NCBI GenBank assembly: GCA_001778235.1
Contig: MFGJ01000008.1
Coordinates: 61,313 to 125,312, forward strand
Direction of reading: 5' to 3'
Length of the DNA stretch: 64,000 nucleotides
Source of the DNA: Candidatus Falkowbacteria bacterium RIFOXYC2_FULL_36_12
GTDB taxonomy: Bacteria > Patescibacteriota > Patescibacteriia > UBA11705
Shown: one piece after another, positions 48,341-62,253 of the stretch
How the letters are laid out: each line of letters begins with the position of its first letter
How positions within the stretch are numbered: position 1 is the first letter of the stretch
The notes under the pieces: generated by a model
The model's input: the letters and a program-made list of their open reading frames with translations, nothing else
Databases searched by the model: none
What the model was told of the DNA's origin: nothing
Translations under genes and position numbers: made by a program

Positions 48341-48548
48341 ATTTGCAAATAAATTACCTTCTTCAACCTACCTCGCCTAATCCGGCTCCGTTCGGTCTAA
48401 TCTCACGGTCGAAGGCTAGACAGAATCTTTATCTTTCTCGCTTCCAATTTTAACACATTTTACCCAGACACTCTAATAACCCAACTATCCCCAACCATTT
48501 TATCTAATTTTAGTCAAAAAAAACACCCCCCTTAAAAAATTAATTTGA

Positions 48549-48577
48549 TTGACAAATTTTATTTTTTATGCTAATTT
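48549..48577 (+). promoter_or_regulatory. Candidate sigma70-type promoter of the ubiquitin-like operon
   Basis: TTGACA at 48549-48554, a 17-nt AT-rich spacer, then TAATTT at 48572-48577. The RBS aaaggagcc precedes the ATG at 48623. Confidence 0.35.
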
Positions 48578-48622
48578 TAGATGAAATGTTCCTTACAACT
48601 AAACCCACAGAAAGGAGCCAAA

Positions 48623-51600
48623 ATGCGCATTCCAGACCTAGATTCCTTGAAATATTTTACTGGTAGCAAAATTAACCGAGAGGTGATTATTCCAAAGACT
48701 GAAATTGATGGCAATAAAATCGGTGATCAATTAATTGCACATCCTTCAAATACTAATTTTCGAGACGATCTCCGTGGTCACATCTATACAATAGTTGCTT
48801 TCACCAATGATACCTATAATAAAATATCTGCAATTATGCAATGTGGCGATTTATTGAATAAATGCTTTACATCAGTAGTTGCTGACCTACATGAAAAACA
48901 TATTAGAATCAGAAGTGGTAACACTTTTTTCAGCCAAAATGGAAATAGCTATATTGCCACAGACTCAACCAATCTAGCTGGTTTTTGCGTCAGAGACGAA
49001 CTAGTATGGAAAAATACAGCTGAAGTACCCCAGTGGTTACTATCACAAGATTTATGGCTTAAAAGAAAAGTTATTGTTGGATTCACAAATAGCGCTGAAG
49101 CAATTGTACAAGTTGATGACAAATATCATACCAAACTGACTCTCGACCAATTAACAAGCTTTAACCGAAAGACAAGTGTAATTAGTAGAAATAAAGAATT
49201 CCACTCAATTAGTAATACAGTAATCACTGTCACCGATACTCTTGAATACGAAGGTTACAAGGTAGGTCAAATACTCACATTAAAGACTGTAGATGCCCAT
49301 CCCCTTGTCAGAAACGCCTCAAAAATTGTTGTTGTTGGTTTTACTTCTATGAACGCTATCGTCAAGCAACTTGATTTAAATCTTTGTGTTTTGGATCATC
49401 TAATGGACACTAATAACTTTTTCCACAACACAGAAATAATCGCCCCAGAATTTCAGCATCTCTATCAAACAACACCAAGGGGAGAAACAGCCATGGACAG
49501 CTACTTCCTGCCAGACATTGTACCAAATCAGCAAAAAATTCTAACAGATAATGAAGTTGATTATACTTACTTTACCAATGTTAGAAATACTCAACTTAAT
49601 ATTGGACATGATGGTATTATCATCAATGATAAGTCTTCACTGGAAATGGCTTGCAACCTCCTAGGAATAATTGTTTCCGCCCAATACCCCACCAACTATG
49701 ACGGCCTGCTATGGTGTAGCTACCACAAAGCCAATGACACTGAATTGGCAACTCAAGTTAACACTCGATCTACCAAAATCAGAAAACACAGCTGGAACAC
49801 TGACACCAATCCATTCATCGCAATTATTCGAGAACACTTATTCCCGTACTTGCCTGAAACGATTGATACAGTCGTCTTGGAAGATGCCAATCATACATAT
49901 CGAGCCCCTACCAACAACAGTACTGAATTCCGCATTTTAAACTGGGCCACACCATCTGAAACTCAACAACTTGAACTCCCATCTCTAATCTTTGCTCGAG
50001 TCAGACCATCCTCAACTTCCTATGCTCAAAGTAATCTTGGTTTCGTCATCAGCTGTCCATATACAAAACACGATGTTGCCGAACTGATCGGAAATGATCT
50101 CTACATTCTATTCGATATTTGTCCACATGGTAGTGCCAATGAACTGGAAATTTTCCAAGAAATTATTATTAGAGTAGCAAAATTCTTGCAAATGCCTGAA
50201 GCAGAACAACGAGCCTATGAAAAAAAACTCTTTGACCGCAATAAAATTGTATTGATAAGTTGGAATAGAACTGGTGATAAAACCGAACAAGCCAAAGTCA
50301 CTGCTTCCCGAGCCTTTCATGAAATCACTGGAAAATTTAGCCAAATTAGAATAACTCCATGCACTAAAGAACAAATACCTCTACAAACAGCACAAAGAGC
50401 TGATCGTCCGGATATTCTATCAATTTATCTCTGGGCAGGTATTTCAGACACTACTCCATCCGTCCCATCTCCCAAAAATATTTTTGGTGTTCAAACTCCC
50501 TATCCAGGTGAAGCAGGCTTTTTTGGTTTTGATGCATCTAACATTAGTTATGTAATTTTTGATGGAGAAACAGCAATCGCTGAAATCCTTGGTAATTCTG
50601 TATATGTTCTTCATTCAATCTTCGCGAAGAATGAACCAAACGAACAAAAACTTTTAGAAATTATTTTTGGTAAAATCGCTGATTTCTACAAACTGTCTGA
50701 AGAAGAACAAAAACAAGCTTATACCGCCCAAGCCCCTATTAGAGATGAAATACAAAAAAAAGCCCAGCAGCTTAAAAAAATACAGATTGTAACCTTTGGC
50801 AACATGCGTGCAACAAAAGCAAAGACTATTGCCACCATCTATGAAGCCTTAATGCCAATTATTGAGAATTACCAGAAAATCAAATTTCACTACGGAAATG
50901 CTAAGACACTTAATAATGATGAAACAACCGCCATAGCCAATTCTGATGGTTGTCTAAACATCTATCTCTGGGCTGGTATTGCTGAATCAAATCCAAATGG
51001 TAAAACCGTCAAATCATTTAAAGAGAAGATGTTTGACATAGCAATCCCCCACTATTCTTCTGAACCTCGCTTCACGCCGTCATACAAAGAATATGTAATT
51101 TTTGATGACGACGAACCCATTGCTGAAATTATCAATGATACGATTATTATTCTAGCTCTAGTTTGTTTTGAAAATGACCCACACGAATATCAGTTACTTT
51201 CTGAAACCCTAAAAAGAGCTACTGCGTATTATGTCCTATCACCTGAACAAAAATCAGCACTTGTAGCTACGCAACGCAAACAAAAAAAATTCCGCTATTT
51301 CAATCTGTCATCATATGACCAGTTTAGGACTCAATTAACTTCTTCAGCCAAAACTCATCTTGTACCATTCCTACCCGACGATATACATATACTCAATTTT
51401 TCCTATGATCAAGTTAAAGTAAAAAATGAACATAAAGCCAAAGCAAAAGAATTTAGTGTCCATCTATACGCTTGCCCAGAAGAACAAATAGCCGACCAAG
51501 TTTATTGCCCGAAAACATTACTTGGGATTGCAGGCACTGATACAGACTACAAAGCTTTCACTCTTGAAGGTGAAAACTTTGCTGTAATAGATGATGATAC

Positions 51601-52426
51601 AAAGTTTATTGTCGCTGAATTAATTGGCAACGATCTCTACATTGGTCTGCCGATTCTACGCTTTCACCATGGTCAGGGCTACTCTACCTCTATCAGCTTG
51701 TGCGAAAAAATATTCCAGCAGATTTCTGTTTTTCTACGAATGACTCCAGAAGAACTAAAACTCTATCACGAAGAAAAACTAAAAAGAAATCGTGATCGTT
51801 ATATCTCTATCACTCTAAAACGGCTTGATACTGAAAGACAAGAACACCTTGATAAAATCAATAAAAATGCCGAAAAAATTCAATCCATGGAAAAAGAACT
51901 GATTGAGCTAAGAAGATCCCAAGCAAAAAGTAGCCGTGAATTACAAATGCTTGATAATGAAAATGATACATTCCGAGCAAAGTTAGCCGAAGAATTTGAT
52001 GCTATTATCAAATTCTCAAAAATTGTTGATATTAAAATTACTTCTGATGGAAATTATCTTGTCTGCACCACAAAAACAATCTATGCACGGCATCCTCAAA
52101 CAAAAAAATATCATCAGATTGGTGCTTTCAAAATCATCATGTCAACTCATGGCAGAATAGACGCAAAAATCGTAACCTTTATTAATCTGACAAAAACCAT
52201 TGTCGGGTATAATGGTGATAATTTTTATGCACCGCATGTCTCGGCCACTGGTCATCCATGTCTTGGAACCATTGAAGGAACTTTACCCCAACTTATTGCC
52301 AGTTATGATTTCAGCGCTGCCATAATTCTCTGTATCGGATTCCTCGAGCAAGTAAACATCCATGACAATTGGGGACGCCATATTGATAAATGGGTACCAA
52401 TCCTTGATCAACTGCCCACCACCTAA
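48623..52426 (+). CDS. Large (about 1267 aa) multidomain protein with a C-terminal E2/UBC-like domain (putative Ubl-conjugating enzyme), an N-terminal unknown region and about 4 internal roughly 160-aa repeat modules
   Basis: The C-terminal roughly 130 aa read ...IVGYNGDNFYAPHVSATGHPCLGTIEGTLPQLIASYDF..., which resembles the UBC active-site region (YHPNI..G.ICLDIL) with a candidate catalytic Cys in HPCLG. Repeated modules carry AE(L/I)(I/L)GN.(L/V)Y(I/V)L ... LSEEEQK / MPEAEQR / LSPEQK / MTPEELK. A coiled coil precedes the E2 part. The start is set at the ATG with an RBS; the track ORF begins 14 codons upstream. Confidence 0.55.
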   Translation: MRIPDLDSLKYFTGSKINREVIIPKTEIDGNKIGDQLIAHPSNTNFRDDLRGHIYTIVAFTNDTYNKISAIMQCGDLLNKCFTSVVADLHEKHIRIRSGNTFFSQNGNSYIATDSTNLAGFCVRDELVWKNTAEVPQWLLSQDLWLKRKVIVGFTNSAEAIVQVDDKYHTKLTLDQLTSFNRKTSVISRNKEFHSISNTVITVTDTLEYEGYKVGQILTLKTVDAHPLVRNASKIVVVGFTSMNAIVKQLDLNLCVLDHLMDTNNFFHNTEIIAPEFQHLYQTTPRGETAMDSYFLPDIVPNQQKILTDNEVDYTYFTNVRNTQLNIGHDGIIINDKSSLEMACNLLGIIVSAQYPTNYDGLLWCSYHKANDTELATQVNTRSTKIRKHSWNTDTNPFIAIIREHLFPYLPETIDTVVLEDANHTYRAPTNNSTEFRILNWATPSETQQLELPSLIFARVRPSSTSYAQSNLGFVISCPYTKHDVAELIGNDLYILFDICPHGSANELEIFQEIIIRVAKFLQMPEAEQRAYEKKLFDRNKIVLISWNRTGDKTEQAKVTASRAFHEITGKFSQIRITPCTKEQIPLQTAQRADRPDILSIYLWAGISDTTPSVPSPKNIFGVQTPYPGEAGFFGFDASNISYVIFDGETAIAEILGNSVYVLHSIFAKNEPNEQKLLEIIFGKIADFYKLSEEEQKQAYTAQAPIRDEIQKKAQQLKKIQIVTFGNMRATKAKTIATIYEALMPIIENYQKIKFHYGNAKTLNNDETTAIANSDGCLNIYLWAGIAESNPNGKTVKSFKEKMFDIAIPHYSSEPRFTPSYKEYVIFDDDEPIAEIINDTIIILALVCFENDPHEYQLLSETLKRATAYYVLSPEQKSALVATQRKQKKFRYFNLSSYDQFRTQLTSSAKTHLVPFLPDDIHILNFSYDQVKVKNEHKAKAKEFSVHLYACPEEQIADQVYCPKTLLGIAGTDTDYKAFTLEGENFAVIDDDTKFIVAELIGNDLYIGLPILRFHHGQGYSTSISLCEKIFQQISVFLRMTPEELKLYHEEKLKRNRDRYISITLKRLDTERQEHLDKINKNAEKIQSMEKELIELRRSQAKSSRELQMLDNENDTFRAKLAEEFDAIIKFSKIVDIKITSDGNYLVCTTKTIYARHPQTKKYHQIGAFKIIMSTHGRIDAKIVTFINLTKTIVGYNGDNFYAPHVSATGHPCLGTIEGTLPQLIASYDFSAAIILCIGFLEQVNIHDNWGRHIDKWVPILDQLPTT

Positions 52427-52443
52427 GGGAGGAGAACATAAAC

Positions 52444-53508
52444 ATGGCTGGAGAAAGCTTCTTTTCCGCAATGATGAAAGCTTTTTGGCTTGGTAGATCA
52501 ACTCCACCAGTACCTGTTCAAAGAAGATTATCAACCAGACAACCAACCTACTTTTCTCCAATTAAAACCTCACCTGAAATTTTTATCTCACAAGAAATCA
52601 TTCCACTAATTCTAATTAGCGCCAAAGCTTATGCCAAAATATGGTATTATATCAGAAGTGCTATGAATTTAAGAGATGAAGAAGTCAGTTGGTTTGGAAC
52701 AGTTGATTGGGACAAAAAAACTCACATCATGACCATTGACGATGTTTTCATTCTGAAACAAAACAATACAACCATGAGTACTTCAATTGCTCCCAATGCC
52801 CTCATTGAATTCTGGCAATCTCAACCTGAAGAAGTTACCGCTCGAATTGCTTTTTGGGGACACTATCACCCACATGGCTGTACAGATCCATCACCAAAGG
52901 ACAATGAACAACTATTAGAATTTGCTGACAACAATGATTTCTTCATTAGAGGGATTTTCACTGCTGATGGCAAACTTTGTTTCACGGTTATGCTGACATA
53001 CGACAATAAACCCAACATCATTGTTATGGATGCTCCATGGGATCATGTTGACCCGAGTAACTTCTTTGACTCATCAGTTCAAACCCAAACTGAAAAAGAC
53101 TTTGCAGATGCAGTAAAAACATTTGTGCCTCCACCCAATCGAAGAAGCCGAACACATCATATTCCTCCAAACGATAGAAGATTTGTTCAGGCAACAGATC
53201 CTATTATTCCACCGTATGCCTCCCAAAATGGAACTCATGATATTAAAGCATACCCACTTGCTGGCACAATTGATCATAGACTAAGCCCAGTTATTCCCAC
53301 TTTACCAAGCGCACCAATCACTCCAACTTTTACTTCACCACAAAGAACCGGCTCTGCGACTATAACATTTACCTCTAAACCATCACTCCCTTCCGAAAAC
53401 CATGAACAACCAGAACCATCTTCACCATCTGACCAAAGTCCAGTTGACACTTCTGAAGCACCCACTTCTGATGAAGATCCAGACACAACCACTCTCGAGG
53501 TAAACTAA
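52444..53508 (+). CDS. JAB/JAMM (MPN+) metallopeptidase with a long Pro/Ser/Thr-rich disordered C-terminal tail
   Basis: The conserved Glu (LRDEEVSW) and the JAMM motif H-x-H-x7-S-x2-D read as HYHPHGCTDPSPKD. The RBS gggaggag is present. The C-terminal roughly 150 aa are low complexity. Confidence 0.7.
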   Translation: MAGESFFSAMMKAFWLGRSTPPVPVQRRLSTRQPTYFSPIKTSPEIFISQEIIPLILISAKAYAKIWYYIRSAMNLRDEEVSWFGTVDWDKKTHIMTIDDVFILKQNNTTMSTSIAPNALIEFWQSQPEEVTARIAFWGHYHPHGCTDPSPKDNEQLLEFADNNDFFIRGIFTADGKLCFTVMLTYDNKPNIIVMDAPWDHVDPSNFFDSSVQTQTEKDFADAVKTFVPPPNRRSRTHHIPPNDRRFVQATDPIIPPYASQNGTHDIKAYPLAGTIDHRLSPVIPTLPSAPITPTFTSPQRTGSATITFTSKPSLPSENHEQPEPSSPSDQSPVDTSEAPTSDEDPDTTTLEVN

Positions 53509-54201
53509 ATGTCAACCACACTAAACGAACATCTCAACCTTGTCAGACATCAACAACTTTTCAATCCTGCTGACTTGGAAGATCAAGAAATTCATGTGAT
53601 TGGTGTTGGAGCTACTGGTTCTAGAATTGCCTTATTGCTTGCCGAACTTGGAATTGAGAATCTACATCTCTGGGACTATGATACTGTTGAAGCCCACAAT
53701 GTACCCAATCAAGCTTATGGTCTGCAACATGTTGGACAATTAAAGGTTGATGCTATGGCTGAAATCATTGGAAGAGACACCAAAGCCAAAGTCATTACCC
53801 ATAATGAAAAAGTTGATGGCACTCAACATTTCGAAGGTTATGTTTTCCTGCTTGTTGATTCACTTGAAGCTAGACGACAAATCTATCAAGGAGCTCTAAA
53901 ACTAAATCCTCATATCCAAGCAATAATTGAAACCAGGATGGGCCCATTTGAAGGCAGAGTTTATATTTTCAAGCCAATCAATGTCAAACATGCTAGACAA
54001 TGGGAAAGGTCTGTCACACCAACAGTCCCTGTCCTTGCTTCAGCCTGTGGTACTGTACCTACACTTGGTAGCACCGCTACTCTGATTGCAGGTATGGCAG
54101 TCAACCAATTCATGCGTTGGACAAAAAACTCACTTGAAGTTGAAAATGAAATGATTTTTGCCACAAATCCATGGACAATCTTGACATTTAATTGGGAATA
54201 G
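53509..54201 (+). CDS. E1-like adenylating enzyme (ThiF/MoeB/HesA family), translationally coupled to the JAB gene
   Basis: A Rossmann glycine loop, VIGVGATGSRIALLLAELG, with the conserved acidic pair (WDYD), a degenerate second motif EAHNVPNQ in place of SNLNRQ, and a candidate catalytic Cys in LASACGT. Its ATG directly abuts the JAB stop (taaatg). Confidence 0.75.
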   Translation: MSTTLNEHLNLVRHQQLFNPADLEDQEIHVIGVGATGSRIALLLAELGIENLHLWDYDTVEAHNVPNQAYGLQHVGQLKVDAMAEIIGRDTKAKVITHNEKVDGTQHFEGYVFLLVDSLEARRQIYQGALKLNPHIQAIIETRMGPFEGRVYIFKPINVKHARQWERSVTPTVPVLASACGTVPTLGSTATLIAGMAVNQFMRWTKNSLEVENEMIFATNPWTILTFNWE

Positions 54202-54276
54202 TTTATACTCATATATCAAACAATCAACTCCTTCAACCACCCCCAAACGCCCTTAACCAAGGGAGGGAGAAACACC

Positions 54277-54666
54277 ATGCCTGACACTAATGATGAGTTG
54301 AAATTCACAATTGGACAAACTCTAAGAGAAATTGCTAGAACTAATGGTCTTATCCCTGAAAACTTCAAATTCTGTGTTAATGGACGCCGAGTAACTCTTG
54401 ATTACAATGTCTTGGAAGGTGATGTTATTTCTGCTGAATCAATTGATGATTCAGTTATCACTGTCCGAGTCCAGAAAATTCCTGGCAAGGCTAACTACTT
54501 TGATCTTCCTCATGGTGCAACCGTAGAACAGGCACTTAATGTTGCCGGATATAGAAACCTCACATCAGAATTTGAAGTCAAACGAGGTACAGAATATGTT
54601 GCCCTCAATGCTGAAGTCTTTCATAGTGACACTATCGTACTAGCAAGACCAACTACTGGTAATTAA
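54277..54666 (+). CDS. Small tandem beta-grasp (ubiquitin-like) protein ending in Gly-Asn
   Basis: A 129-aa protein. Two roughly 60-aa segments each show ThiS/MoaD-like hydrophobic periodicity (KFTIGQTLREIA...VNGRRV...GDVIS and ITVRVQKIPGK...GATVEQAL...EVKRGTEYV...SDTIVLARPTTGN). A strong RBS, gggagggag, is present and it is the last gene before the terminator. The fold is assigned by inference only. Confidence 0.45.
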   Translation: MPDTNDELKFTIGQTLREIARTNGLIPENFKFCVNGRRVTLDYNVLEGDVISAESIDDSVITVRVQKIPGKANYFDLPHGATVEQALNVAGYRNLTSEFEVKRGTEYVALNAEVFHSDTIVLARPTTGN

Positions 54667-54672
54667 AAAAAA

Positions 54673-54701
54673 CTGACTATTTAATACAATAGTCTTTTTT
54701 A
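54673..54701 (+). terminator. Intrinsic terminator of the ubiquitin-like operon
   Basis: The hairpin gactatt-taatac-aatagtc followed by ttttttatttt, 8 nt after the stop. Confidence 0.6.
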
Positions 54702-54789
54702 TTTTCTCATTAATTCAAAATTCATACTATAAATACTTTCTCTCCTTACATTTTTTAATTTATTCACCTTGCAAATCATTTTCCACCGT

Positions 54790-55300
54790 ATTAAGCATTT
54801 ACTTTAATATTAAATCCCACGAACATGATAAGCCTCGGGGCTTGCCTGCCGTAATCTTGATGAAGGCAGGTCTGGGGGCTTTCTTGTCGTCAACACCACC
54901 ACTAAGAAAGCATCAAACATGAACATCTCAGGGGCTTGCCTGCCGTAATCTTGATGAAGGCAGGTCTGGAGCGGCAATGCGCGCTACCAACACGCTCATT
55001 TGTCACCCCTGAAATTAATTCAGGGCAGGCTCTGAATTTATTTCAGGGTATAATCAAGCTATCCCTTTATACTCTGAAATCCATCTTCGTTAAAACTTCG
55101 CTGGACAAGCAAGTTCAGAGTGACAAATTGAAATATATAAACAACAATAACAACTAACGCATCTTGCCCGTCTTCATCGTGAAGTCGAGACAGGCTATGC
55201 TTTCAGGCAGGGTGTCAAAAAAACTTGCTTTAGCAAAATGATAACTTACTTTAGTGAAACTTATCATCTTCTTTAATGTTAAATCCCACGAGCTGTCGCT
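54790..55300. repeat. Mosaic repeat region downstream of the ubiquitin-like operon
   Basis: Two module B copies (54833-54872 and 54932-54971) with cacgaacatga..ctcgggg and aagcatcaaacatgaacatctcagggg leaders; gcggcaatgcgcgctaccaacac; module A variants (cacccctgaaattaattcagggcaggctctgaatttatttcagggtat); a 70-bp copy of atccctttatactctgaaatccatcttcgttaaaacttcgctggacaagcaagttcagagtgacaaatt (identical to 22500-22570); and cttgctttagcaaaatgat. Confidence 0.75.
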
Positions 55301-55366
55301 AGTAATTTATGTTTATAACAAAAAAGTGCACTAAATTTAGTACACAATATTATTTAAACTCTATTC

Positions 55367-56719
55367 CTAATCGTCTCTACGAGAGTTCAGACGAAGTCTC
55401 GCCGTCCCCACACGACCGGACGGCAGTGCCGGCTGATCATTCGAAGGATTCAAAGCCGGTCCACTCACACCACCACCAAGGAGATTACTCTGTGCAGTTC
55501 TGGGTCGAATATCAGTCAAATCACTCTGCAAACTTCTCCAAGGAATGTCCATTGCAGTATAAAGCATAAACATGAGCATTCTTGTTTCCATTTGACTATT
55601 CGGAGGAAACTTGTCCCGATTACGAAGAAGCATAACAGCAGCAGCAAACTGCTTCAACTTCAATTCCATTCTCTCATGTTCCGAAGTCACATCGAGCAGA
55701 CCCCTTTCAACCAACATCAACTTCAATTCATCATCAGTAGTCGCTCCAACCATCAGAGGCAATTCCTTATTCTTCAACAAATTCTTCACATCCACAGATT
55801 CAGCCATCAATTCACGAGGAACTGGAAGAATCGGACCAGCAAACATCTTATTGAAATTCTGATGAGCCACATCAACCGCATCACGCACCATACCAGCGTC
55901 AACAGGTGAAGCAAAACTTACAAGAGAAGCAGTCGCGACAGAATTAGGATTAACCACCTTCTGCATACCAACTTCAATCGCATCATAAAATCTCTGCTGT
56001 CTGAAAACATCCGACGACTCAAACCACTTCTGAATCTGAACTGCAACATTATGCAAGGTTCTCCACAAAAACTTGTCAACTCGCTCATAGAAAACAGCTT
56101 TACGCGCATCATCAACAAAACTTCCATCCTTCGTGATTGCATCCAGAATGTGTCGGTACTGACGCCTTCTAATCTGTCGTTCCAGTGCGTAAAATGCAGG
56201 CTTCGACGGGGAGTCAATTTTCATCTGATGATCAAGCATCATCTTGTGCAAGACTGTTGGAATGCTAAAAAATCCCGTTCTATTAGCAAGTGCAACACTG
56301 ACTGCATAAACAACATCATTTGGCTCAATCAGATCGCGAAGTTCAGTGTCACGCTTCAAAACGCCAACAACAGTGTCATCATCAAAAGCAACATCTCCCA
56401 GCATATCTTCGACCTGAACATCTTCAACTACTTCAGCTTCTTTTTCATCAGCGCCATAAAGCATACCCAGATTCTTACGAAGCACAGCCTTGGGAACAAC
56501 CTTTGTATCAACCAATGCACCACACAAATCACCAAACGGAGCTGACTCTTGAGTCAAGTAATTTACAGCATCATCTTGGTAAATCTGGTCGAGGAAAAGC
56601 GGGTACAGACCATTAGCCAAAGTCTGAACATTCAGATGACATACTTCAGCAAATCTATTCAAACGACTAAGCATACTTTGGTGAAGTCTCTTTAGATCGA
56701 CAGAGACAACTTCGGTCAT
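55367..56719 (-). CDS. Hypothetical protein (451 aa) with G/C-rich codon usage, looking foreign
   Basis: The RBS ggagg lies 7 nt upstream of the ATG at 56717-56719 (MTEVVSVDLKRL...). Third codon positions are rich in G/C, unlike the neighbouring genes. No family recognised. Confidence 0.5.
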   Translation of the reverse strand: MTEVVSVDLKRLHQSMLSRLNRFAEVCHLNVQTLANGLYPLFLDQIYQDDAVNYLTQESAPFGDLCGALVDTKVVPKAVLRKNLGMLYGADEKEAEVVEDVQVEDMLGDVAFDDDTVVGVLKRDTELRDLIEPNDVVYAVSVALANRTGFFSIPTVLHKMMLDHQMKIDSPSKPAFYALERQIRRRQYRHILDAITKDGSFVDDARKAVFYERVDKFLWRTLHNVAVQIQKWFESSDVFRQQRFYDAIEVGMQKVVNPNSVATASLVSFASPVDAGMVRDAVDVAHQNFNKMFAGPILPVPRELMAESVDVKNLLKNKELPLMVGATTDDELKLMLVERGLLDVTSEHERMELKLKQFAAAVMLLRNRDKFPPNSQMETRMLMFMLYTAMDIPWRSLQSDLTDIRPRTAQSNLLGGGVSGPALNPSNDQPALPSGRVGTARLRLNSRRDD

Positions 56720-56889
56720 GACACACCTCCACACACCCTCCGCTGTCACCCCAGCGGGCAAGGTTCGCAGGTCCGCCTTGGCCTGCAAGTCTATTTTATT
56801 TAATTGTAATGACCTTCGCAGAAACCATAATTTACCAAAACTTTTCAACTTTGTCAAACAAATCACATGTTAAACAATTTTCTTCTATT

Positions 56890-58869
56890 TTAGTCAAAAA
56901 GCAAGTTAAACAACTCATCCATCTTTAGCTTACCATCATACACTAAACCCTGTCGAGAACCTGTTTGTGTAAAACTCTTTATATTTTGTTTAAATTGAAA
57001 ATTTAGGCTAATTTTCCACTCTTTTACCCCAGCCTGCTTCTGAATAAGTAGTTTATAATCCTTGTCCCGACTTGCTTCATAAACCGCTTTTGGTAGTTTA
57101 TATTTAATTACAATAGTTTTACTCTGTTTTGGTTCAACTTCAAAGAAAAAACCATAGGCTGATTTATTAAATTCCTTATAAAAATCAACTTCTTCATTTT
57201 TAACTACATCATTGCCTATTTTCAACTCTACAAGTTCACTGCCTTCTGGCACATATACTCGTGTATAACTACGATACCTTGTTGTGCGATAATCAAAAAA
57301 ACCATTATTAATATAAGTCAATTTCAATTCACTTGTATAGCCATTACCACTTTCCGATAATTTATAACTCATTTCTCTGTTCATCACTCTGTCAGTTTTT
57401 AGAGCTGCCAAATTTGCATCTACCACCATCAGATAGTCATCAGGAGTATATTCAATTTTTCCCGCCCATTTTTTTTCTTCAAAATATTTTTGCAAAGTTG
57501 TATCCTTGACATAAATCTGTATAAACTTTTCCTTCATATTTCTGGTAACAACATCAAACAGTTCTTCAAATCTATTTAACGGCAAATTAAACAATCTATT
57601 CTCGAGCTCTTTTGACAATTTGCCAATAATATCTTTTCTGTCACCTTCAGCATCTCCACCTTTTTCAAAATATGCTACTTCCACTTGATACTGCAATTCA
57701 TCTGTAAAATTTTCTTTGGAAAAAGTAACTCCGTCAATGGTTATATTACCAACTAAAGCAATTAGATCTTCTACTAGATTCGGATTGATTGCAATCACGC
57801 CATCAATATTTGCTTCAGGACCTCCCTCAAGATGATAAAACTGTTCAATCTTCTCGGCAGAAGTAGGAAAATCAGACCACCAATTTGCGTCTCGCATAAA
57901 CCATTCTGACATACCAAGATATTTTTTTATTGGTTCAGGTGGAACAGCTAAATTTTTATCTTTTATCTTTACATCCAGATTGTAAATATTATCAGTAGTA
58001 AAACTTTTCAAATCACCATTTTTTACTTTCATGATTCCATAAGTACCGATAAATCCTCCACTTGGACGAAGTTCATCATTATTTTGCAAAATAAATAAAT
58101 ATTTTTTCTCTTGGTCAAGCCCAACAAGGCTTGGCATAACATCTGAAACAGTCGTAAAGGCTTCAAAACCTTTTAACATTGACGGCACAATACTTACCAC
58201 CGCATCTTCAACCGGATCCCAAAAACCATATTTACCCTTACCAATAAAATTCGTATAGGCACTATCAATCTGATCAATTTCTACTTGTGAATGTTTTATC
58301 AGATCACCTATTTCCACTAACTTCTTCAAAATTTGGCTTCTTTCAGCTTCACTAATTTCTGAAAAACTTTTATTACTGGTCTGCCAATCAGCCAAGACAT
58401 TTTCACTTATAGAAAAAATTTCATTGGCTATCTTTGTGGCGTTTGAACCAATAACAATCAGATCTTCAGCCAAATCAACTTCTTTTTTAACAATCGGCAA
58501 ATTGAAAACTGCTTTTTGTTTTAATATTTGTAATTCTTGTTCAGCCGAAAACAAATTATTATTGGCGACTTCCAATCTTTCTTTGGCCGTCTTATAATCC
58601 TTTTGCTCCAAATACTGGGCAAATGCCTGCAGATTGTCTCTCGCATCCAAAACTTCAGCTGTAACTAACTGTATTGAATTCAAATACGGCAATGTTGACA
58701 AACCAAGCAATATTACTACAAGTAAAACCCCAGCCAAAATTAATCCAATAATCTGTGGCAAGAAATGCAATGGCAACAAAAAAAATCTGCTCCAATGAGG
58801 TTTTTCTTGATCCTCTAGTTGCTTTTTTTCAATAAAATTTTGTTTATTAAAACCCTCCATGTATTTCAA
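56890..58869 (-). CDS. DUF4012-domain protein (associated with cell-surface polysaccharide biosynthesis)
   Basis: An N-terminal transmembrane helix and a large domain with LRPSGGFIGTYG, characteristic of DUF4012. It lies next to GT2 genes. Confidence 0.65.
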   Translation of the reverse strand: MKYMEGFNKQNFIEKKQLEDQEKPHWSRFFLLPLHFLPQIIGLILAGVLLVVILLGLSTLPYLNSIQLVTAEVLDARDNLQAFAQYLEQKDYKTAKERLEVANNNLFSAEQELQILKQKAVFNLPIVKKEVDLAEDLIVIGSNATKIANEIFSISENVLADWQTSNKSFSEISEAERSQILKKLVEIGDLIKHSQVEIDQIDSAYTNFIGKGKYGFWDPVEDAVVSIVPSMLKGFEAFTTVSDVMPSLVGLDQEKKYLFILQNNDELRPSGGFIGTYGIMKVKNGDLKSFTTDNIYNLDVKIKDKNLAVPPEPIKKYLGMSEWFMRDANWWSDFPTSAEKIEQFYHLEGGPEANIDGVIAINPNLVEDLIALVGNITIDGVTFSKENFTDELQYQVEVAYFEKGGDAEGDRKDIIGKLSKELENRLFNLPLNRFEELFDVVTRNMKEKFIQIYVKDTTLQKYFEEKKWAGKIEYTPDDYLMVVDANLAALKTDRVMNREMSYKLSESGNGYTSELKLTYINNGFFDYRTTRYRSYTRVYVPEGSELVELKIGNDVVKNEEVDFYKEFNKSAYGFFFEVEPKQSKTIVIKYKLPKAVYEASRDKDYKLLIQKQAGVKEWKISLNFQFKQNIKSFTQTGSRQGLVYDGKLKMDELFNLLFD

Positions 58870-60762: not shown

Positions 60763-62253
60763 TCAACTTCTCTTTTTTGGAGTCACCCAGAATCCCAAAT
60801 GATATTTTTTACCAAGTGCCAATCTTGTTTGAGCATCAAGCGCGGGAAAAGCCCCAAACAATACCAAGGTAAATGGCAACAATATCCATTGAAAAATCAT
60901 CACCAGCCATCTTGATTTTGGATGAGATTCAGGTTTTGGCGGTAAAACTAATAAACTGAAAATAGCTGAAACAAATATACCTGTCATTGCCAGTCCCATA
61001 AGCCATTCAAGCACAAACGGAGTATTTTGCACCATCACCGAGCTTGATTCGTGGCCCAAACTTGCAACCCACAGAGGTAATCTACCTAAAATAAATATAA
61101 ATAATGGTGCAGTTGCCCAGAAAAACATCCCTTCAGTCGCATTCCACAAAAGTTTGAACTTCACCCATTTTGAAATTTTTGGATGTTCAAGAAATTTCTG
61201 TTTCATATATGGATAATGCTCAACTCCCCAAGCCCAGCGTCTTTGCTGTTTGTACAAATTCTTAGCACTTTGCCACATTGTATCAGCCTCAACATTGTCC
61301 ATTGAAACTGGTACATACATTGGCACCACTTCAAAATCTCCATCATAATGAAAAAATCCCTGTAAAAAAATCCTTGAATCATCAGTAACAATATCTTTTT
61401 GCCAAAAACCTACATCAACCAAAGCTTTATACGGCATTGAATGCGATGAAAAAGTCTGCATTCTTTCTGGTCTAACCAATTCAGCCATTAACCAAAATAC
61501 TGTACCAAAAGCGGTTACACGCGTAATAGCTGGTGATTCCCAGATGTTATTATTGTAAACTACTGCCGGTTGATAAGCTTTCCGTAAAGGATTTTCTGTT
61601 GTTAAATATTTATAAGTTAAATTAGAAAAATATGATGGATGGGCTTGAGTATCAGAATCAAAATACGAACAAATTACATCCTCATATGCAATTCCTAATT
61701 TATCTATTACCGCTTTACTTTCCATTCCTCCATAATGTGCATTTGCACCTTTTCCTTTCATTTCTCCAGGTAAGCCATCTGGATGAACAGTTCTGAAAAA
61801 TTTAAAAAATTTACTTGAATATTTTTTTTCAAGTTTTCGCCAATTCTCCAAAAATTGATCTTGGAATCTTTCTTCACCAGCCAAATGTACAATAAAATGA
61901 TCCAACGGAAAATCATTACGGGTTAAACTGTTTAAAGTTGTATCCAAAACTTCAAATGGTTCCCCCGCTGTTGGCAAAATAACATAATGATAAATGCGTT
62001 TCCAGTCTTTATTTTCTTGTTTCAATTTATCCATCCAATTTATTTTTATTTCCCGCCTAAAATTTTTCCATGAAAAATAAAGCAAAATTGAAAAATATGC
62101 AATTCGAATAAGCCAAAATAAATCAAAAACAATTACAAAGTATATTACCCAAAGTGGTTTTACAAAACTCAAAACAATTGAACCAATCAAAGCAGTCCAT
62201 GCCAATGAGGCTGGAAAAATTTCATTAATTCTTTTTCTAGTTTGTTTTTTCAC
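60763..62253 (-). CDS. Integral-membrane processive GT2 glycosyltransferase (cellulose-synthase-like, QRRW motif)
   Basis: Two N-terminal transmembrane helices, a cytoplasmic GT-A domain with D, DxD and QQRRWAWG (QxxRW) motifs, and 4 C-terminal transmembrane helices. Confidence 0.65.
   Translation of the reverse strand: MKKQTRKRINEIFPASLAWTALIGSIVLSFVKPLWVIYFVIVFDLFWLIRIAYFSILLYFSWKNFRREIKINWMDKLKQENKDWKRIYHYVILPTAGEPFEVLDTTLNSLTRNDFPLDHFIVHLAGEERFQDQFLENWRKLEKKYSSKFFKFFRTVHPDGLPGEMKGKGANAHYGGMESKAVIDKLGIAYEDVICSYFDSDTQAHPSYFSNLTYKYLTTENPLRKAYQPAVVYNNNIWESPAITRVTAFGTVFWLMAELVRPERMQTFSSHSMPYKALVDVGFWQKDIVTDDSRIFLQGFFHYDGDFEVVPMYVPVSMDNVEADTMWQSAKNLYKQQRRWAWGVEHYPYMKQKFLEHPKISKWVKFKLLWNATEGMFFWATAPLFIFILGRLPLWVASLGHESSSVMVQNTPFVLEWLMGLAMTGIFVSAIFSLLVLPPKPESHPKSRWLVMIFQWILLPFTLVLFGAFPALDAQTRLALGKKYHLGFWVTPKKRS

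Follow-up and report, generated by a model that had tools for sequence, protein, structure and literature searches.

A putative ubiquitin-like conjugation cassette of Patescibacteria and phages with a family-wide Gly-Asn end on its modifier

Ubiquitin-type tagging is taught as needing a C-terminal glycine on the modifier, and the bacterial versions worked out in 2023–2024 (CBASS Cap2, Bil and Bub) all belong to antiviral defence. A precedent for activation of a C-terminal Asn is provided by MccB, which resembles the E1 (activating) enzymes of such pathways (PMC4010828, PMC11118369). Here we describe a cassette from a 64,000-nucleotide stretch (positions 61,313 to 125,312) of contig MFGJ01000008.1 of Candidatus Falkowbacteria bacterium RIFOXYC2_FULL_36_12; this whole stretch is referred to as the window, and all coordinates are numbered within it. 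The cassette is a plus-strand operon encoding, in order, a 1281-aa protein with an E2-like (conjugating enzyme-like) domain, a JAMM peptidase, a ThiF-type E1 and, as the last gene, a ubiquitin-like protein (Ubl) that ends in Gly128-Asn129. The reading that we favour, with about even confidence, is that Asn129 itself is the activated C-terminus of the Ubl in an E1/E2-like/JAMM conjugation cassette. The features concerned are:

54277..54666, plus strand: Ubl open reading frame (ORF), ATG start, TAA stop, 129 aa, C-terminus ...LARPTTGN
54277..54450, plus strand: Ubl residues 1–58, predicted degenerate, N-terminally truncated beta-grasp domain ending ..SAESIDDSV, with no Gly-Asn tail
54451..54666, plus strand: Ubl residues 59–129 and stop codon, predicted complete beta-grasp domain with tail R-P-T-T-G128-N129
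53509..54201, plus strand: minimal ThiF/MoeB-type E1, 230 aa, single ThiF domain (Pfam ThiF, 1e-20)
53602–53625, plus strand: E1 P-loop, G32-V-G-A-T36-G-S-R39 (Thr36 codon 53614–53616)
54046–54048, plus strand: E1 Cys180 in the motif SACG, invariant in a 30-sequence alignment
52444..53508, plus strand: JAMM/JAB metallopeptidase, 354 aa, catalytic core at about residues 50–215, C-terminal tail rich in Pro, Ser and Thr
48581..52426, plus strand: 1281-aa protein with an N-terminal repeat region, a coiled coil at about residues 1065–1130 and a C-terminal E2/UBC-like domain
51968..52426, plus strand: probable E2/UBC-like domain, His1219 at 52235–52237 and Cys1227 at 52259–52261, motif APHVSATGHPCLG

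Tails were counted over 165 beta-grasp units in 143 distinct Ubl proteins, 117 of these units being C-terminal. Gly is held in 160 of the 165 (97%), and the residue that follows is Asn in 154 (93%), Ala in eight, Ser in three and Gly in none. The original prediction had read the C-terminus of the window protein as ..ARPTTGN rather than GlyGly, as the ORF bears out, and had made its case depend on the penultimate Gly being kept among homologues; this residue proved near-invariant, and a variable C-terminus without a conserved Gly was not seen. Most C-terminal units (72 of 117, 62%) stop directly after Asn, 29 carry one further residue, 7 carry two and none ends in Gly. Family proteins contain one, two or three copies of the unit, and in multi-unit proteins the units end in ..[IV]-[KR]-G-N, as in one poly-Ubl with three near-identical repeats, each ending in ..EPIKGN. 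At the internal junctions of poly-Ubls the motif GN is found in 44 of 48 cases.

The register of the tail places Asn opposite the reactive end of related proteins. When the family profile is aligned with E. coli ThiS, Haloferax SAMP2, MoaD and TtuB, the family Gly falls on their penultimate Gly and one residue only, their reactive terminal Gly, is left opposite Asn (IKGN vs IKGG in SAMP2). The Pfam ThiS coordinates agree with this register in four of five proteins. Counted from Asn, the tails mostly have no extension and in a minority a short and variable one, which is the same pattern as in type I Bil when counted from the terminal Gly.

The identity of the residue after Gly is also reflected in the E1. 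Among 137 unique E1 sequences, the fifth residue of the P-loop (G-x-G-A-T-G-S; Thr36 in the window) is Thr or Ser in 122 that accompany Asn tails, and Val, Leu or Ile in 12 that accompany Ala (seven), Gly (four) or Ser (one) tails, with one clear exception (Fisher p = 2e-15 for unique sequences, 1.4e-7 for clusters at 55% identity). Lineages without Asn are dispersed, each lying nearest to relatives with Thr and Asn, and the switch of E1 and tail therefore happened at least five times. The four genes recur, with their order permuted, on about 240 related loci that were fetched; cassettes were counted on about 160, and the rule linking E1 and tail held on 78 that were fetched afterwards as a test of the covariation. 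These 78 include GG-type relatives (tails IKGG-A, VEGG-E, IKGG-R and VEGG-TS) which have the canonical hydrophobic P-loop residue; their second Gly is at the Asn position and is followed by a variable cap. Because Asn is strongly conserved, lies on the terminal-Gly position and covaries with the E1 P-loop, it looks like an activated end and not a disposable cap. Most simply, the residue that follows the conserved Gly would be the reactive C-terminal one in the whole superfamily, being Asn in most members and Gly, Ala or Ser in the remainder, with an E1 pocket tuned to it.

Two explanations of the unusual end had been put forward in the original prediction, a pro-Ubl that needs C-terminal processing and a different conjugation chemistry. 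The data incline towards the second in a modest form, in that Asn is conserved, in terminal-Gly register and coupled to the E1; the first is the main rival, and we consider it rather unlikely. Under it, Asn129 would be a one-residue cap, the JAMM peptidase would cut between Gly128 and Asn129, and Gly128 would be adenylated and passed via Cys180 and Cys1227 to a target lysine, so that the conserved Asn would serve as a P1' determinant of the peptidase or as a plug in the E1 ATP site until processing. Known Ubl conjugation is all Gly-based with JAMM enzymes cutting after Gly, which this explanation shares, and Gly is the most conserved residue of the tail here. A trimmed tail would, however, be one residue shorter than those of ThiS, SAMP2, MoaD and TtuB, and trimming would throw away a residue kept in 93% of the units and coupled to the E1 P-loop in several independent lineages. 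Consistent with trimming, the peptidase is present in nearly every cassette and its residue G85, beside the catalytic Glu motif, covaries with the residue after Gly, a smaller tail residue going with a larger one at this site (p = 3e-5). Yet the supposed cap would always begin with a lineage-specific Asn, Ala, Ser or Gly while later residues vary, and no family member ends in a bare Gly, unlike type I BilA. The experimental precedent is type II Bil, with a conserved Gly plus extra residues and a JAB cut between Gly97 and Ala98 (PMC10557695), and some relatives here are Gly-Ala, as is Ensifer aridi BilA. If Asn is a cap, it is still an unusually strict and universally kept pro-form, and the question becomes how processing licenses conjugation.

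The modifier itself was predicted to be ubiquitin-like with two beta-grasp halves, and modelling confirms this. A full HMMER scan of 1.84 billion representative proteins returned 42 relatives at E ≤ 1e-3, and an AlphaFold2 model built on 14 of them has the beta-grasp fold at a mean predicted local distance difference test (pLDDT) score of 86.3. Its best Foldseek matches in the PDB are ISG15, linear di-ubiquitin and FAT10 (E about 4e-6, probability 1.00), with MoaD also matched, and viral ubiquitins head the fold matches in BFVD. Pfam matches of the homologues are ThiS (6.5e-11), SAMP2 and Ub-Mut7C; single-sequence scans of the Ubl against Pfam, PHROG, PADLOC and NCBIfam gave no usable match, and a word-indexed homology search found the protein itself alone. 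The Ubl is thus modelled as two beta-grasp domains, the second complete and the first truncated. Residues 60–123 are predicted to form strand-strand-helix-strand-strand, and the unit hidden Markov model (HMM) matches residues 58–129, with Gly128 encoded at 54658–54660, Asn129 at 54661–54663 and the TAA stop at 54664–54666. Residues 1–58 match the family unit profile at positions 27–65 of 74 only (E 1.2e-4), so that the first domain is without its first strand or strands and without a tail, while the first repeat of homologues ends in IKGN. The first domain is a decayed copy from a polyubiquitin-like repeat family, of which the Ubl would be an ISG15-like derivative with two domains, and only the second would keep a functional tail. 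The tandem arrangement had been called unusual; it is not, as bacterial Ubls commonly have two or three beta-grasp domains (PMC11601603).

Since the closest sequence families of the Ubl are ThiS, MoaD, TtuB and SAMP2, and the E1 is of ThiF/MoeB size and type, a role as a ThiS/MoaD-like sulfur carrier, or as a purely structural beta-grasp protein and not a protein modifier, has to be weighed. In that case a thiocarboxylate would come from the E1 and product release from the JAMM peptidase, as in CysO/Mec+ and QbsE/QbsD, and sulfur pathways that pair JAMM with ThiS/MoaD proteins are known (PMC1779556). Neither the cassette of the window nor those of the approximately 160 relatives contain a sulfurtransferase, rhodanese or biosynthetic gene, however, and none lacks the E2-like domain with its invariant Cys and His. 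A cofactor pathway would have no use for poly-Ubl genes or for Ubl fusions, most carriers are phages, and the tail does not end in Gly-Gly. We rejected this reading, which appears highly improbable, on the absence of sulfur and biosynthetic genes, the constant E2-like domain and the poly-Ubls.

The E1 family profile matches PaaA, ThiF, MccB and UBA5 in the PDB at 1e-9 to 1e-8; BubCD is a distant match (1.2e-5), and no Bil E1 is among the best 60 PDB matches. In PADLOC the window E1 is matched by CBASS E1-E2 models only, over approximately 70 residues. The canonical E1 motif is D-x-D-x-V-x-x-S-N-L-x-R-Q; residues 56–68 of the window E1 read D-Y-D-T-V-E-A-H-N-V-P-N-Q, and Asn67, at the Arg position of the canonical motif, is invariant in the family alignment.

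The resemblance to MccB bears on a chemistry specific to Asn, in which the E1 adenylates Asn129 and its side-chain amide attacks to give a C-terminal succinimide, as MccB does with MccA. This would yield, in place of a plain alpha-carboxyl isopeptide, a nucleotidylated end, a beta-linked (iso-Asn) conjugate or links that cleave themselves. The E1 profile matches MccB about as well as ThiF (1.6e-9 vs 1.1e-9), but the MccB match covers profile positions 12–97 only, and the 230-aa E1, which starts at the Rossmann fold, is without the N-terminal peptide-clamp domain of MccB. Asn is strongly conserved and the hydroxyl residue of the E1 is tied to it, and a C-terminal Asn is what defines the MccA substrates of the E1-like MccB (PMC4010828, PMC12250964, PMC11118369). 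Set against this, the invariant E1 Cys and the E2-like His and Cys point to a thioester relay, sister lineages with the same cassette use Ala, Ser or Gly, which are unable to cyclise, and no microcin-type transporter or immunity genes are present. We therefore regard such a chemistry as improbable. If true, it would provide phages and their hosts with a ubiquitin-like code chemically orthogonal to systems based on Gly and to the deconjugating enzymes of these.

A JAMM peptidase had been placed in the same operon as the Ubl, and its motif E80...H140-x-H142-x7-S150-x2-D153 substantiates this, with the E1 and E2-like domain there too. Residues E80, H140, H142, S150 and D153 are invariant in a 32-sequence alignment, and the motif HxHx7SxxD (52861–52902) is found in 157 of 165 family members. 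The best PDB match is BRCC36 (E 0.028) and PADLOC gave a weak JAB match (E 0.0035); there was no Pfam match at threshold, and single-sequence PHROG, PADLOC and NCBIfam scans gave nothing usable.

Assignment of the C-terminal domain of the 1281-aa protein as an E2 is probable, judging from a profile comparison. In a 37-sequence alignment of E2-like domains, His1219 and Cys1227 are invariant (columns His155 and Cys163). When the 37-member profile was compared by hhalign with four human E2s, the match had a probability of 87% and an E value of 4.1e-6 over 116 columns; the family Pro-His is aligned to Pro-Asn in the HPN motif, and the invariant Cys to the catalytic one. A homology search with the domain found three proteins only, the E2-like profile against the PDB gave coiled-coil noise only, and Pfam on all E2-like members the same, with no family matched; the 1281-aa protein as a whole matched no Pfam, PADLOC, PHROG or NCBIfam family. 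Ahead of the domain, at approximately residues 440–1060, are four internal repeats of about 180 aa each with the motif [VI]AE[LI][LI][GN][ND]. Relatives of this repeat region precede the E2-like domain in 36 ORFs of other loci, and the N-terminal 1060 aa (48581–51770) may be the substrate-selecting part.

Three further observations concern E2-like proteins. Many cassettes (e.g. loci L098, L104, L113, L116 and L124) have two E2-like genes or domains, the second copy having His replaced by Arg, Tyr, Asn or Gln, or having lost Cys; such altered copies recall the inactive UEV-type partners of E2s. The cultured jumbo Xanthomonas phage PhiXhv-12 (PV764601, 140754–144128; L166) encodes a distant 892-aa E2-like protein with 'HPHM..GSLCLG' and Cys-rich ends, its gene adjoining a ThiF-like gene annotated 'thiamine biosynthesis protein', with no recognisable Ubl downstream. 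The database protein P0164 (259 aa) combines an ABC-transporter N-terminus with a near-copy of the window E2-like C-terminus (97% identity in the search table, 92% in the alignment) and is probably an assembly chimera.

Returning to Asn129 as the activated end, we infer the following chemical steps. The E1 would bind the Ubl tail, with Thr36 of the P-loop contacting and reading the Asn side chain, and would adenylate the alpha-carboxylate of Asn129. The Ubl would then be taken onto E1 Cys180 as a thioester, handed on to Cys1227 of the E2-like domain and transferred to an amine of a target, presumably chosen by the large and variable N-terminal part of the 1281-aa protein. The JAMM peptidase would reverse the link and, in relatives, would also trim residues after Asn and cut poly-Ubl and fusion precursors. 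As the window Ubl stops at Asn, we propose that it needs no processing.

Several points weigh against this mechanism. All lines of evidence are computational. To our knowledge, all characterised Ubl-protein conjugation systems use a C-terminal Gly, with no non-Gly precedent among protein modifiers, and we know of no characterised JAMM peptidase that does not cut after Gly. An activated C-terminal Asn is prone to cyclise to a succinimide, as in MccB. Within the family, Gly is slightly more conserved than Asn (97% vs 93%), and the window tail is atypical in having P-T-T before G-N vs Lys or Arg before Gly in 86% of the family. Around the catalytic Cys of the E2, no alignment column varies together with the tail residue, the model of the E2-like domain is poor (pLDDT 65) and a Foldseek search with it was uninformative, and it is a weakness that the E2 fold comes from profile comparison only. 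The seeds of the unit HMM were selected with a G[NA] filter, a possible source of bias; the internal poly-Ubl junctions and the unbiased HMMER hit list have the same pattern and argue against circularity. The JAB of type II Bil takes off the one residue that follows the conserved Gly, and the E1 structure places this extra residue in the ATP site, where it blocks ATP binding (PMC10557695), so covariation between E1 and cap could also arise under trimming. Finally, the substitution G163L in BilA abolishes defence (10.1101/2023.09.04.556158).

Large uncultured phages commonly carry the cassette, as do Patescibacteria and Melainabacteria. The E1 has 194 relatives (E ≤ 1e-10) at 40–48% identity. 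Searching with the E1 alignment confirmed 282 places in IMG/VR viral contigs, many of them 150–210 kb long, where the single E1 sequence as query of the viral collection had found nothing, and located 107 places in representative genomes, mostly of Patescibacteria (Saccharibacteria, Paceibacterota and others) and Melainabacteria/Obscuribacterales. In nearly all of the approximately 160 loci counted, iterated HMMs found the four components on a single strand with their order permuted, the window order of E2, JAB, E1 and Ubl being the commonest (42 loci). Some loci are phage-like in context, with DNA polymerase A, SbcC-like and helicase genes, while others, the window included, are plainly chromosomal; cultured phages carry distant relatives only (E1 identity 26–30%). 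This distribution suggests a biological role in phage-host conflict. We found no description of the cassette family in the literature searched, and it is apparently undescribed so far. Its unusual features are a Gly-Asn end kept throughout the family, the alignment of this end with the reactive Gly, the co-evolution with E1 and the occurrence mainly in phages, Patescibacteria and Melainabacteria. If Asn is the activated residue, a reactive end that is not Gly and bears a side chain would be a first among protein-modifier families, E1 and Ubl would offer a natural specificity switch (Thr with Asn, Val with Ala or Gly), and phages themselves would carry complete E1-E2-peptidase-Ubl systems.

Variation in Ubl architecture was also observed among the related loci. 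In L109, L112, L123, L127, L140, L143, L145, L148, L150, L153 and L154 the Ubl unit is an N-terminal fusion in which KGN is followed by 100–250 aa of unknown domains, an arrangement like that of ubiquitin-fusion precursors. Single-unit Ubls of Patescibacteria and of a phage-like contig have long Lys-rich or Arg-rich disordered N-terminal tails (L004/L089, 9749–10054 of L004; L005, 9740–10108). The 188-kb viral contig IMGVR_UViG_3300014204_000114 (L014, L031) carries two E2-JAB-E1 cassettes about 7 kb apart, with a Ubl gene beside one only.

In the window, the cassette lies in an island on the strand opposite to almost all neighbouring genes, which are mostly on the minus strand. The island and the sequence elements around the Ubl gene are:

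48493..56900, no strand: island, about 8.4 kb, with the cassette and an unrelated ORF of 499 aa
48493–48520 and 56873–56900: 28-nt imperfect direct repeat (23/28), at both island borders
55367..56866, minus strand: 499-aa ORF within the island, GTG start
54181..54209, plus strand: promoter-like site, TTGACA, 17-nt spacer, TATACT (11/12 consensus matches; identified by consensus match only)
54260..54269, plus strand: strong Shine-Dalgarno sequence AGGGAGGGAG, ending 7 nt 5' of the Ubl ATG (sequence reading)
54675..54701, plus strand: terminator-like hairpin and T-run, GACTATT, 6-nt loop, AATAGTC (sequence reading)

The GC content of the island is 0.38–0.43 vs 0.31–0.36 in the flanks. The border repeat may have arisen by duplication of an attachment or target site when an element inserted, or by chance; there is no tRNA near the island, and this weak repeat is the only candidate integration signal. 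For the 499-aa ORF, Pfam, PADLOC, PHROGs and NCBIfam gave no match, and the first 165 related loci (L001–L165) contain no relative. The Ubl ORF is a real gene: the identical protein is recorded from 17 contigs as a "hypothetical protein" of Candidatus Falkowbacteria RIFOXYD2_FULL_35_9 (Patescibacteria, or candidate phyla radiation). The promoter-like site lies within the 3' end of the E1 gene, just 5' of the Ubl gene, and the hairpin downstream was missed by the terminator scan because its stem is AT-rich. In the 700-bp non-coding gap 3' of the Ubl gene there is a 54-nt direct repeat of 89% identity (54822–54875 and 54916–54969), each copy holding a hairpin GCCTGCC...GGCAGG; neither the repeats nor the gap have a significant match in Rfam.

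Among the closest known systems are SAMP2/UbaA/HvJAMM1 (archaeal sampylation) and the carriers ThiS, MoaD and TtuB. The beta-grasp unit matches SAMP2 best in sequence (E 5.7e-6), whose tail is equal but for the last residue (..L-x-K-I-K-G-N in the family vs ..L-R-L-I-K-G-G), and sampylation likewise uses a small single-domain ThiF-type E1 with a JAMM peptidase partner. In contrast to SAMP2 and ThiS, the terminal Gly is replaced by Asn and an E2-like domain is present, which sampylation lacks; tandem and poly-Ubl forms occur, and the carriers are phages and bacteria, not archaea. Of the features expected of the beta-grasp superfamily, an adjacent cognate E1 is found, the ThiF-family gene being directly upstream with linkage kept in about 160 loci, while in place of a tail ending in Gly(-Gly) there is Gly128-Asn129 with Asn on the terminal-Gly position.

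At the level of the operon the cassette resembles type II Bil (BilABCD, with Gly97-Ala98 in Ensifer aridi BilA), which also comprises four functions (Ubl, E2, JAB and E1) with Cys-based E1 and E2, and whose Ubl extends beyond the conserved Gly and is trimmed by its JAB (PMC10557695). The residues after Gly are not conserved in type II Bil, however, whereas Asn here is conserved and covaries with E1. BilD is a large E1 with an inactive and an active adenylation domain and a separate inserted CYS domain, unlike the 230-aa single-ThiF protein here, and the Bil E2 is small and stand-alone whereas the E2-like domain here ends a 1281-aa protein. PADLOC defence models matched neither the Ubl nor the E2 protein; with the small E1, the conserved Asn and no model matches, the cassette is not clearly a type II Bil. 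The two-beta-grasp architecture is shared with type I BilA and with vertebrate ISG15, the top structural match, but type I BilA has a fully conserved free terminal Gly and two complete domains, whereas here the first domain is truncated and the end is Gly-Asn; membership in type I Bil was rejected on the missing free Gly end, the small E1 and the lack of a defence-model match.

Bub ('6E', polyUbl) has E1 and E2 without a catalytic Cys (Tyr/Ser oxyesters), JAB-E1 or E2-E1 fusions and a DUF6527 serine protease; it was rejected as the Cys residues here are invariant in E1 and E2, the genes are separate and DUF6527 is not matched. Type II CBASS (Cap2/Cap3) was likewise rejected, no CD-NTase or effector being present and E1 and E2 being separate. 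Microcin C offers the parallel of an E1-like adenylating enzyme acting on a ribosomal product with an obligatory C-terminal Asn, as Asn129 is terminal here, but MccA is a short peptide and not a folded 129-aa beta-grasp protein, and MccB has a peptide clamp, needs no Cys or E2 and makes a phosphoramidate antibiotic. The absence of a clamp domain, the folded substrate and the lack of export or immunity neighbours led us to reject membership in that system. Finally, eukaryotic polyubiquitin precursors share the head-to-tail near-identical repeats, the tail motif at every junction and cutting by a dedicated peptidase; their repeats end in Gly-Gly vs Gly-Asn here, and the window Ubl is a decayed two-repeat version with one tail left. 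The cassette would work like a Ubl conjugation system of the SAMP2 or Bil type.

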